Part shown: positions 38,124 to 38,781 of the stretch, in pieces
Layout of the letters: every line of letters starts with the position of its first letter
Numbering within the stretch: the first letter of the stretch is position 1
Origin: a virus
Taxonomy: Duplodnaviria > Heunggongvirae > Uroviricota > Caudoviricetes
Strand: one strand, 5' to 3'
Length of the DNA stretch: 40,869 nucleotides
IMG/VR virus record: IMGVR_UViG_2541047754_000003
Notes under the pieces: model-generated
Told to the model about the DNA's origin: nothing
The model's input: the letters and a program-made list of their open reading frames with translations, nothing else
Databases searched by the model: none
Translations under genes and position numbers: made by a program

Positions 38124-38372
38124 ATGAAAGGTGCATTAGGTAAGAAGGAACTCCTGGCGGTGGTGCCACTGTCATGGAGCACTATCGACCGTATGGAGCG
38201 CGCAGGTGAATTTCCTAAACGCTGGTATATCACTGACAAACGCTGCGCATGGAACCGTGACGAAGTTGAGCGTTGGCTTGATGAACGTCAGGCAGCAAGC
38301 CCGGCAGAGTTCCAGGGTAAAAAACCTCCTGTTCAGCAACGTGTATATCGTCCTGTGAGCAACGCGGCATGA
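38124..38372 (+). CDS. AlpA-family HTH regulator/excisionase
   Basis: 82 aa; motif STIDRMERAGEFPKRWYITDKRCAWNRDEVERWL matches AlpA/Xis-type DNA-binding pattern. Confidence 0.7.
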   Translation: MKGALGKKELLAVVPLSWSTIDRMERAGEFPKRWYITDKRCAWNRDEVERWLDERQAASPAEFQGKKPPVQQRVYRPVSNAA

Positions 38373-38485
38373 GTGTGCTGCTAAGGCACTGGAGCAAATG
38401 GTCAGGATGGTACTTATTCCTGACCTCTGTTTCAGCATGGCTTTATCTGCTGGCATTAATTTTCAGAGAGGGTTGGATTAAGTGA
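38369..38485 (+). CDS. Small hydrophobic peptide (38 aa, one TM helix), translationally coupled
   Basis: ATG overlaps AlpA-like stop (ATGA) and its stop overlaps the next GTG start (GTGA); sequence MSVLLRHWSKWSGWYLFLTSVSAWLYLLALIFREGWIK. Confidence 0.4.
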   Translation: MSVLLRHWSKWSGWYLFLTSVSAWLYLLALIFREGWIK

Positions 38486-38781
38486 GAAAGTTAAGCCGAC
38501 TTGAAAAATATCACATGAACAAGGTTTCAATGCGCAGCCCTTCAAAGGTTGTTGCCGTTACTCCTGCGGCGATAGAGATCGAAAAACGCGCGATTGAAAG
38601 AGAGAAAAAAGGGCAGTTCCGCATTGCCGCCCACCTTTGGCTTCAGTGTATGGATGTTGCTTCTGGTGATGTTGAGCGTGCAAGGATCGCGGTTCGCAGG
38701 GACCAATGTATCACAAAAGGTAACGGCCTTCGCCGTGGCGACTATAGCGGCATAGGATGTTGTGGGGTGGTTTATGACTAA
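38482..38781 (+). CDS. PerC/Pch-like transcriptional activator candidate
   Basis: Pattern AAHLWLQCMDV...RARIAVRRDQC resembles PerC-family W...C...R..I..RR..C signature (from memory); GTG start coupled to upstream peptide. Confidence 0.4.
   Translation: MRKLSRLEKYHMNKVSMRSPSKVVAVTPAAIEIEKRAIEREKKGQFRIAAHLWLQCMDVASGDVERARIAVRRDQCITKGNGLRRGDYSGIGCCGVVYD

Follow-up and report, generated by a model that had tools for sequence, protein, structure and literature searches.

Gene order and relatives of the locus

The window analysed here, a DNA stretch of 40,869 nucleotides, represents a Uetakevirus prophage of the phiV10/ε15 type located at guaA. Its nucleotide identity with phiV10 and relatives is 98–99%, and the chromosome of E. 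coli 85.0412, in which guaA adjoins just beyond the integrase, is 100% identical to the prophage. Three small genes follow one another on its + strand: ORF1 (38124–38372) encodes an 82-aa AlpA-family winged-helix regulator, ORF2 (38369–38485) a 38-aa Trp-rich single-pass membrane peptide, which we call p38, and ORF3 (38482–38781) a 99-aa small helical protein of the PerC family with a GTG start. An earlier note had described these genes as a chain of three, linked by an ATGA (38369–38372) and a GTGA (38482–38485) overlap. The ORF coordinates and both overlaps proved to be exact in the sequence, and all three identities (AlpA family, single-TM 38-aa peptide, PerC family) hold. The chain itself, however, is longer than had been thought, and runs on into genes for an MT-A70 family DNA methyltransferase (38774–39424, + strand; Pfam MT-A70, E = 9.7e-22; phrog_359; PADLOC MTase_II) and for a DUF1382 protein (39421–39615, + strand; Pfam PF07131, E = 1.4e-30), which is its final gene. 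A P4-type tyrosine integrase gene (39619–40869, − strand), present in the ORF list and in the phiV10, ε15 and PGAP annotations, is convergent with the operon. On the upstream side, recT (37052–38074, + strand; Pfam RecT, E = 4.5e-57) lies directly before the alpA-like gene in every related locus.

The trio genes are already known and annotated in phiV10/ε15-type phages. Their counterparts are p36/p35/p34 of phiV10, gp33/gp32/gp31 of ε15, SPN1S_0037-0035 and Tyrion gp34-32, which have the same order, the same sizes (249/117/300 nt) and the same 4-nt overlaps, and are annotated as an AlpA-family regulator or excisionase, a membrane protein and a PerC-type transcriptional activator. Nucleotide identity over the trio is 98% with phiV10, essentially identical except that its RefSeq record begins PerC at an internal ATG, and about 79% with ε15. 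The small peptide had been called unannotated, and this is true of PGAP bacterial records only; it is annotated in phiV10 (PhiV10p35), ε15 (gp32), SPN1S, Tyrion and PHROGs.

We found the region in 562 of 5,426 complete E. coli genomes. The order recT, hairpin, alpA (82 aa), small ORF (38/39 aa), PerC (∼99 aa) recurred in all the loci we looked at, which came from Escherichia, Salmonella, Enterobacter, Klebsiella, Kluyvera, Pseudocitrobacter and metagenomes, while the genes downstream of the trio differ among related loci. Among phage records, p38 is present in 35 and the PerC-like protein in 36, a near-identical distribution. All the ORF1 relatives retrieved fall within the same 82-aa subfamily, and a scan of viral contigs for distant PerC/Pch contexts returned near-identical loci only.

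Properties of the three products

ORF1 matches Pfam Phage_AlpA (PF05930) over residues 8–52 with 24.2 bits (gathering cutoff 21), the PDB entry 8c3t, an 'AlpA family phage regulatory protein' (E = 1.8e-11), and phrog_66, 'excisionase and transcriptional regulator' (E = 2e-16); its pN/pS is 0.22. We compared it with CP4-57 AlpA, the AlpA master regulators of PICIs, the excisionase-like EcCIMP1 AlpA_1 and 8c3t, with which it shares a small winged-helix DNA-binding domain (PF05930) beside a P4-type integrase. The integrase gene lies 1.2 kb downstream of ORF1 on the opposite strand, in keeping with the genomic context of the family. ORF1 belongs to the terminal part of a recET-type early operon that converges on int, whereas PICI AlpA lies directly downstream of int, and it is distinguished from other AlpA proteins by a conserved 25-residue C-terminal tail, GKKPPV.QRVYRPVSNAA. 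Members of the AlpA family promote excision and/or activate element genes (PMC11773190). ORF1 is probably an excisionase, the expected partner of the P4-type integrase. The family takes in antiterminators too. As its members include activators and antiterminators, the excisionase role of ORF1 is not certain. The alpA gene appears disrupted in TL-2011b; we rejected this as a real variant, since the sequence there, with an N and scattered mismatches, is probably poor.

The whole of ORF2 aligns with phrog_17484, 'membrane protein' (positions 1–38 of 38, E = 2.1e-27). The predicted TM segment spans approximately residues 14–32, and its best 19-residue window, WYLFLTSVSAWLYLLALIF, has a mean Kyte-Doolittle hydropathy of 1.79. 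We observed that the frame is intact (38/39 aa) in 94 of the 96 fetched matching loci, always between AlpA and PerC, and truncated in the other two, so that conservation of the 38-aa frame, one of the checks proposed earlier, came out positive. Pairwise dN/dS in the ORF2 frame was 0.13–0.46, as against about 0.5–5.8 in the other two frames, and pN/pS was 0.40 (binomial P = 8.6e-7, four independent pairs pooled). The motifs WSGW and IFREGW are invariant; Arg33 stays constant despite AGA/CGA/CGG codon changes; the Trp-rich motifs and the TM character hold down to 53% identity, and the length is constant at 38–39 codons. The window peptide carries V3 and T19 where phiV10 has A3 and A19. By its pattern of substitutions, p38 is protein-coding and under purifying selection.

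In a 97th locus, that of phage BUCT554, p38 is replaced by a divergent ORF of 32 aa. This peptide has neither the conserved Trp residues nor the REGWIK tail nor the PerC overlap, while the PerC-like gene is normal; canonical p38 is therefore not essential for phage viability.

The earlier suggestion that the peptide might be Kil-like found no support in its sequence. ORF2 had no match in Pfam or NCBIfam (E ≤ 1) or in PADLOC (E ≤ 0.1), and no similarity to Kil, type I toxin, holin or other host-killing families was found. An exhaustive phmmer search with p38 returned only five related clusters, every one the same peptide. The PADLOC defence-system models gave no match for any of the trio.

ORF3 matches Pfam PerC (PF06069) with 30.1 bits (cutoff 22.6), as the earlier note had anticipated, though over profile positions 5–50 of 90 only. 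Alignment of the ORF3 subfamily with EPEC PerC by hhalign gave 95.5% probability and E = 1.4e-8, pairing ORF3 residues 34–92 with PerC residues 5–65. Together with PerC (EPEC pEAF), Pch (EHEC prophages) and EcCIMP1_025 of a PICI, ORF3 has a core of ∼60 residues, E..G.[FY]R.AA..W...ER...R..CI...YSGI; all of these proteins are small, helical and located on mobile elements, and the ANR family (Aar) is related. At its N-terminus ORF3 has ∼33 residues more than PerC (helix 1 and an LxKYH motif), whereas the final ∼25 residues of PerC have no counterpart in it. ORF3 belongs to a tight subfamily of its own, phrog_868 (E = 6.5e-62). A homolog search with EPEC PerC returned three proteins, and tblastn of EPEC PerC against phages two records. 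The match to the ANR (AraC negative regulator) model NF033650 was 23.6 bits, below the cutoff of 32, and indicates related helices only. pN/pS of ORF3 was 0.34, comparable to that of p38.

An AF2 model of the PerC-like protein has four helices with moderate confidence (pLDDT 72). Sequence and Foldseek searches of the PDB gave nothing significant; the nearest structural neighbours were MIT/TPR-like protein-binding bundles, with a non-significant E of 0.47. The C-terminal tail, highly conserved (Y88, G95, V96, Y98), is disordered in the model. By homology, the PerC-like protein may be a small helical, protein-binding or anti-silencing modulator like Pch or ANR, rather than a classical HTH activator.

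Start sites, overlaps and possible translational coupling

At junction 1 (38369–38372, + strand), where the alpA stop meets the ORF2 start, ATGA or GTGA was present in 96 of 96 family loci. Junction 2 (38482–38485, + strand), formed by the ORF2 stop and the ORF3 start, reads ATGA, GTGA or TTGA across the 94 loci with an intact small ORF, being GTGA in 80 phiV10-type loci and ATGA in all relatives that are not of the E. coli type. Both 4-nt overlaps are retained in all 94 intact loci, which answers the other conservation check proposed for this chain; the exceptions are BUCT554 and the two truncated loci. Further along, the PerC-like and methylase genes overlap by 8 nt (38774–38781, ATGACTAA), and the methylase stop overlaps the DUF1382 start as ATGA (39421–39424). 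Overlaps of 4 nt are common throughout this prophage, at least nine being present in its PGAP table.

The PerC-like gene has been annotated with at least four starts, giving 83, 88, 99 or 122–124 aa. We rejected the internal ATG at 38515 (267 nt), which is the start in the phiV10 RefSeq record: it has no Shine-Dalgarno (SD) sequence (+0.4 kcal/mol), the conserved N-terminal LxKYH motif lies 5′ of it, and the junction codon is ATG in relatives. We also rejected the gene of 369–375 nt that spans ORF2 in some Klebsiella phage records and in Salmonella PAT1; stop codons interrupt its frame in Pseudocitrobacter, in Tyrion and in the E. coli type, and the frame shows a dN/dS of 0.9–5.8. The longest annotations overwrite the real small ORF. 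On these sequence comparisons, the true start of the PerC-like protein is GTG 38482.

Upstream of alpA there is a strong SD sequence, AAGAGAGGT (38111–38119, + strand), with an anti-SD duplex of −8.9 kcal/mol, conserved in 13 loci. No independent ribosome-binding site was found for p38 (−1.9 kcal/mol), which hence probably depends on reinitiation after AlpA. The PerC GUG, in contrast, has an SD-like GAGAGGG (38466–38472, + strand) within ORF2 codons R33-E34-G35, 9 nt 5′ of the start and with −7.0 kcal/mol, and similar purine-rich motifs are kept in relatives. Translational coupling of the trio, as the earlier note proposed, is plausible on the basis of the missing SD of ORF2 and the overlaps conserved wherever the ORF is intact. 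We also looked for RNA hairpins that could enforce coupling at either junction and rejected them (z from +0.46 to −1.36, 0–2 covarying pairs). Ribosomes would load at the strong alpA SD, and those ending at the alpA UGA would most likely reinitiate on the overlapping AUG to make p38. The PerC-like protein would be started at the GUG lying over the p38 stop, aided by GAGAGGG, and the methylase and DUF1382 genes may be translated in the same overlapping manner.

Predicted control of the operon and possible functions

We next consider the transcription of the chain. A consensus scan revealed a candidate early-left promoter, TTGACA-17-AATCAT (35630–35658, + strand; 10 of 12 matches), preceded by the repressor gene and a terminator (35559–35578). 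A repeat search found two operator-like palindromes, TTACC-N7-GGTAA (35595–35611 and 35657–35672), which flank and overlap this promoter. The ε15 record annotates repressor operators at the equivalent position, and by that annotation we infer that the palindromes are repressor operators; promoter and operators alike are consensus-level predictions. The trio lies ∼2.5 kb downstream of this promoter-like site, and on the + strand no promoter-like or terminator-like site was found from recT to the end of the chain. The gap between recT and alpA holds a conserved GC-rich palindrome, GCGGCGC-CACAC-GCGCCGC (38083–38101, + strand), without a U tract. Across 13 loci the hairpin energy is about −15 kcal/mol, and a single compensatory change (GTGGCGC/GCGCCAC) was seen; the hairpin was not called as an intrinsic terminator, and the ε15 record labels it 'transcriptional pausing'.

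We consider it likely that the trio is the distal part of a repressor-controlled early-left operon of recombination and excision genes, and that the phage carrying it, a temperate podophage of the phiV10/ε15 type, has inserted at the 3′ end of guaA. As the palindrome-flanked promoter starts the operon, the trio is expected to be on at induction or infection and off in lysogeny. Upon loss of the repressor, transcription would begin near 35630–35658 and pass through two small genes, the YqaJ exonuclease gene, recT, the GC hairpin and the five overlapping genes in the order alpA-like, p38, perC-like, MT-A70 methylase and DUF1382, to end convergently with int. By homology, the AlpA-like protein would then serve as a recombination directionality factor or regulator working with the adjacent P4-type integrase, while p38 may be an accessory single-pass inner-membrane microprotein acting on a host or phage membrane target during lytic development. 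Literature searches returned no expression, excision or interaction data on the three trio genes, and the vB_EcoP_ZX5 paper is reported to have tested the repressor, anti-repressor and integrase only (PMC9782041).

This arrangement resembles the distal pL operon of lambda (xis, ea8.5, orf55, orf61, Kil, CIII), which is likewise a repressor-controlled early-left operon having recombination genes, an excision factor and then small overlapping non-essential accessory genes. We take lambda orf55 to be DUF1317 and orf61 to be DUF1382; DUF1382 is present in the window, and DUF1317 at the same position in relatives. The window differs from lambda in that int is convergent and not co-transcribed, and in that the excision factor is of the AlpA type, whereas that of lambda is of the Xis type. 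Moreover, the small host-directed lambda proteins Kil and CIII are not similar to p38 in sequence, and they are not integral membrane peptides as p38 is.

Could the three products instead form one physical or functional unit, in which p38, for example, acts on the PerC-like protein (or AlpA) by tethering, sequestering or titrating it, and coupling sets the stoichiometry and links the excision decision to a membrane switch? The strict three-gene synteny, together with the matching phage distributions of p38 and the PerC-like protein, speaks for this, as do 4-nt overlaps that stay invariant while flanking genes vary, the conserved disordered PerC-like tail, typical of a partner-binding motif, and a natural p38::PerC fusion (P0089). 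However, synteny within a narrow phage lineage may be plain shared descent, the P0089 fusion comes from one 122-nt deletion seen in a single sample, and BUCT554 keeps a normal PerC-like gene beside its degenerate, uncoupled peptide. We regard such a unit as unlikely. A specific form of it, to which we give little credence, is a three-component device of ε15/phiV10-type phages: at the inner membrane, p38 would bind the PerC-like protein by its conserved disordered tail, or else AlpA, and coupled translation would fix their ratio, thereby gating anti-silencing or excision on induction. If true, this would be a phage regulatory circuit centred on a membrane microprotein that standard bacterial annotation overlooks in >500 complete E. 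coli genomes.

Small hydrophobic early proteins of phages are often toxic. The earlier note had raised a lysogenic-conversion or virulence module, in which the PerC-like protein would activate host virulence regulons (LEE and others) in the lysogen and p38 would be a Kil-like killer. ORF3 is indeed a bona fide member of the PerC family, and an ε15-type copy is present in EPEC E2348/69 (H49). EPEC PerC and EHEC Pch activate LEE1 (PMC4764244, PMC11773190), Pch working through relief of H-NS silencing (PMC4764244). On the other hand, among PerC-family proteins of mobile elements, some activated LEE1, while others repressed it or had no effect (PMC11773190), and ORF3 matches just ∼60 residues of EPEC PerC, from which its N-terminus and tail differ. 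As the trio sits in a repressor-controlled early operon, ∼2.5 kb below the palindrome-flanked promoter-like site and with no promoter of its own predicted in the recT–alpA gap, a lysogenic-conversion module does not fit. The genes also occur widely, in Enterobacterales from commensal, avian, urinary and environmental sources and in LEE-less Salmonella and Klebsiella; p38 is unlike Kil or any toxin family; and ZX5 lysogeny is reported to have left host adherence and virulence unchanged (PMC9782041). A virulence module is, in our judgement, quite improbable.

It is still less probable that ORF2 is a translated spacer, i.e. a coupling ORF that passes ribosomes from alpA to perC and whose peptide is functionless. 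The missing SD, the overlaps with both neighbours, the PerC SD inside ORF2 and the very different peptide tolerated in BUCT554 would suit such a role. Nevertheless, the amino-acid sequence is under purifying selection comparable to that on PerC (0.40 vs 0.34), and the invariant Trp-rich motifs, the TM character and the fixed length of 38–39 codons likewise speak against it.

Finally, a programmed −1 frameshift at the Lys-Lys codons of the alpA tail, which would yield another AlpA isoform (for the window and for phiV10, a 120-aa membrane-tethered AlpA–linker–p38 fusion), is extremely improbable and not supported in the window: a canonical dnaX-type heptamer, A_AAA_AAG, is in frame in 9 of 13 relatives, a 9-bp stem lies 8 nt downstream in ε15, SPN1S, Tyrion and PAT1, the −1 frame of the window is open from the A-run into p38, and assemblies contain AlpA::p38 fusion proteins (P0163, P0200), but the window heptamer is non-canonical (T_AAA_AAA), the lineage-specific stem is missing from it, no structure was better than shuffled controls, P0163 and P0200 shift at different positions, as with ordinary indels or homopolymer sequencing errors, and loci with the canonical heptamer stop in the −1 frame after three codons, so that the product is not conserved.

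We see no sign that the trio is a new type of system or acts in virulence. The comparative data settle the gene models, namely a 38-aa ORF followed by a 99-aa PerC-like protein that starts at the junction codon; this conserved, selected 38-aa gene, carried by about 10% of the complete E. coli genomes, is missed by PGAP. The trio is one among several uncharacterised accessory modules in a temperate phage family common in Enterobacterales, and small-protein studies could reasonably take up its conserved membrane microprotein, which is probably coupled to two small regulators.

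Gene chain of a phiV10/ε15-type prophage

The three genes lie exactly where the earlier note had placed them, on the plus strand: an AlpA-like gene (alpA, 38124-38372, 82 aa), a 38-aa ORF (p38, 38369-38485) and a PerC-like gene (38482-38781, 99 aa, GTG start), joined by ATGA (38369-38372) and GTGA (38482-38485) overlaps. The chain is longer than this trio, since an MT-A70 methyltransferase gene (38774-39424, plus strand) overlaps the PerC-like gene by 8 nt (ATGACTAA) and is itself overlapped, through ATGA, by a DUF1382 gene (39421-39615, plus strand). At least nine 4-nt gene overlaps are present in the PGAP table of the prophage, and therefore such an overlap is by itself unremarkable. 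A P4-type integrase gene (39619-40869, minus strand) is convergent with the operon. The stop codons of the operon and int (39615-39619) are only 3 nt apart, and read-through would be antisense to int; at the equivalent place the ε15 record has RNase III sites, which recalls sib retroregulation in lambda.

Escherichia phage phiV10 and related phages are 98–99% identical to the region; for Salmonella phage ε15 the value is about 79%. The E. coli 85.0412 chromosome matched at 100%, with the prophage at the 3' end of guaA, which is the attachment site of phiV10, ε15 and vB_EcoP_ZX5 according to the ZX5 report (PMC9782041). The region is carried by 562 of 5,426 complete E. coli genomes, and phiV10-like elements have been deposited as 41-kb 'plasmids' in this species (NZ_CP079771.1 and NZ_CP079768.1). 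The window prophage bears a tRNA-Arg gene (anticodon TCT) in its middle (25875-25951). The PGAP-annotated prophage of NZ_CP122448.1 also encodes a YafO-family toxin and a BRO-N anti-repressor-type gene, and its tail-fibre gene is flagged as a partial pseudogene.

In the phiV10 record, p36 is annotated as AlpA family, p34 as a PerC-type activator and p35 as a membrane protein with 'one C terminal transmembrane helix predicted'. The ε15 counterparts are gp33, gp32 and gp31 for AlpA, the peptide and PerC, respectively, and the SPN1S and Tyrion records annotate equivalents of all three genes. PHROGs has a separate family for the peptide, phrog_17484 (end-to-end match, E = 2.1e-27), and the p38 gene is omitted only from PGAP bacterial records. 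The description 'unannotated' is thus right for PGAP records and wrong for phage records and PHROGs. The exact window variant of the peptide was absent from a large protein collection. The trio comprises already annotated genes of a well-known phage genus, which are real, conserved and correctly described by the earlier note.

The 38-residue peptide and its translation

By tblastn, 35 records of Escherichia, Salmonella, Enterobacter and Klebsiella phages contain full-length p38 (63–97% identity). An exhaustive phmmer search recovered only five related clusters among 1.84 billion representatives, and therefore the family is narrow. Its most divergent members (39 aa, 53–61% identity) have the same recT–alpA–peptide–perC order and the same overlaps, with variable genes downstream. 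The peptide family was matched in 96 of 97 fetched loci, 94 having an intact 38/39-aa ORF. Across these loci the alpA/p38 junction reads ATGA (GTGA in Klebsiella); the p38/PerC junction is GTGA in the phiV10 type, and every non-E. coli type has ATGA there.

Pairwise dN/dS was 0.13–0.46 in the peptide frame compared with about 0.5–5.8 in the other two. When four independent pairs were pooled, p38 had a pN/pS of 0.40 (P = 8.6e-7), comparable with the PerC-like (0.34) and AlpA (0.22) genes, and Arg33 is kept despite AGA/CGA/CGG codon changes. Five of the 38 residues are Trp, the WSGW and IFREGW motifs are conserved, and a 19-residue hydrophobic core spans positions 14–32. The proposed single-TM peptide is upheld by the phrog_17484 match and this core, and from homology we infer that it would be an accessory inner-membrane microprotein. 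Pfam, NCBIfam and PADLOC gave no match to p38 and no sequence support for the Kil-like role raised earlier. Enterobacter phage BUCT554 has, at the equivalent position (L097, 2389-2487), a small ORF for a still hydrophobic 32-aa product without W8, W14, W24 or the REGWIK tail, and 13 nt separate it from a PerC gene having its own SD. Because this version is divergent and uncoupled, the canonical peptide is dispensable for phage viability.

The SD of alpA is strong and conserved (AAGAGAGGT, −8.9 kcal/mol). As p38 lacks one (−1.9 kcal/mol), it is most likely made by reinitiation of ribosomes that have terminated AlpA. An SD-like GAGAGGG for the PerC-like gene lies within the R-E-G codons of the peptide (−7.0 kcal/mol). 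No RNA structure at either junction outscored shuffled sequence or had covariation. Judged from the overlaps and the SD-less p38, the translational coupling suggested by the earlier note would hold.

Public records place the PerC-like start in at least four versions (83, 88, 99 and 122–124 aa), the longest of which overlap and mask p38. We rejected both the longer model of some Klebsiella and Salmonella entries, in which the peptide is overwritten, and the internal-ATG start of the phiV10 RefSeq. The grounds are that p38 is conserved and under selection, that relatives have ATG as the junction codon, and that the internal ATG lacks an SD and is preceded by conserved residues.

A programmed −1 frameshift from AlpA into p38 could be suspected from AlpA::p38 fusion proteins in public assemblies (P0163 and P0200) and from a canonical in-frame dnaX-type heptamer, A_AAA_AAG, in the alpA tail of 9 of 13 relatives; the window has an open −1 frame that runs into p38. 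However, where the heptamer is canonical a stop follows three codons later in the −1 frame, and the window has T_AAA_AAA (38318-38324, alpA codons 65–67). Moreover, a 9-bp stem 8 nt downstream of the heptamer is lineage-specific (ε15, SPN1S, Tyrion and PAT1), and the two fusions result from 1-nt deletions in the alpA tail at different positions. Frameshifting is hence not supported for the window. A p38::PerC fusion (P0089; L099, 3001-3291) comes from a single 122-nt deletion across that junction in one sample. Ordinary mutation or homopolymer sequencing error is the most likely origin of all three natural fusions.

The AlpA-like and PerC-like proteins

The AlpA-like protein passed the Pfam Phage_AlpA threshold (24.2 bits against 21) and matched phrog_66, 'excisionase and transcriptional regulator', as well as the solved structure 8c3t, 'AlpA family phage regulatory protein' (E = 1.8e-11), in agreement with the family first assigned to it. 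By homology, it is likely to serve the neighbouring P4-type integrase as its directionality factor. In the phage TL-2011b RefSeq (L004, 3054-3320), the alpA region, annotated as a fragment of 37 aa, has an N and many mismatches scattered through it; poor sequence quality is a more probable cause than a real disruption.

The PerC-like protein scored 30.1 bits against Pfam PerC (threshold 22.6), covering only the first half of the profile, and a 43-member subfamily profile matched EPEC PerC with 95.5% probability (E = 1.4e-8), residues 34–92 aligning with PerC residues 5–65. It is therefore a genuine PerC-family member, in line with the PerC-like signature seen in the earlier note, and it carries some 33 additional N-terminal residues and a tail unlike that of PerC. 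The score against the ANR model was below the cutoff. AlphaFold predicted four helices (pLDDT 72) and a disordered C-terminal tail, which is nevertheless highly conserved; the nearest solved folds were MIT/TPR-like protein-binding bundles, none of them significant. From homology, we infer that this small helical protein may be a Pch/ANR-like modulator; Pch lifts silencing by H-NS (PMC4764244). Klebsiella plasmid records (85–727 kb, most typed conjugative) contain the PerC-like gene with DUF1317 alongside.

Operon control and biological role

A strong promoter match (35630-35658) is flanked by two operator-like palindromes, TTACC-N7-GGTAA (35595-35611 and 35657-35672), downstream of a terminator at the repressor gene end (35559-35578). 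Repressor operators are annotated at the equivalent position in ε15, and 35559-35672 is probably the early-left control region. On the plus strand, we found no promoter-like or terminator-like site from recT to the chain end. Given the predicted upstream promoter and operators and the absence of a predicted promoter further along, the trio should be expressed when the prophage is induced or the phage infects, and not during lysogeny. Between recT and alpA, 13 loci share a GC-rich hairpin (GCGGCGC-CACAC-GCGCCGC, 38083-38101, about −15 kcal/mol) that shows one compensatory change and lacks a U tract. It may act in RNA processing or pausing, or as a DNA-binding palindrome. Further upstream, at 33809-33852, a terminator-like hairpin (TGGGATCATTCAACATCCCG then a T run) occurs as two identical tandem copies, 24 nt apart.

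The lysogenic-conversion role suggested by the earlier note does not fit a position in a repressor-controlled early operon, and a general virulence role of the PerC-like protein appears unlikely. The module is common in hosts without LEE, and PerC-family proteins of mobile elements repressed LEE1 or left it unaffected in published assays (PMC11773190). ZX5 lysogeny altered neither host adherence nor virulence (PMC9782041). That the three proteins act as one membrane-linked regulatory device is of low probability. What is added here to these known phage genes is the selection evidence for the microprotein, the correct gene models and the operon context.
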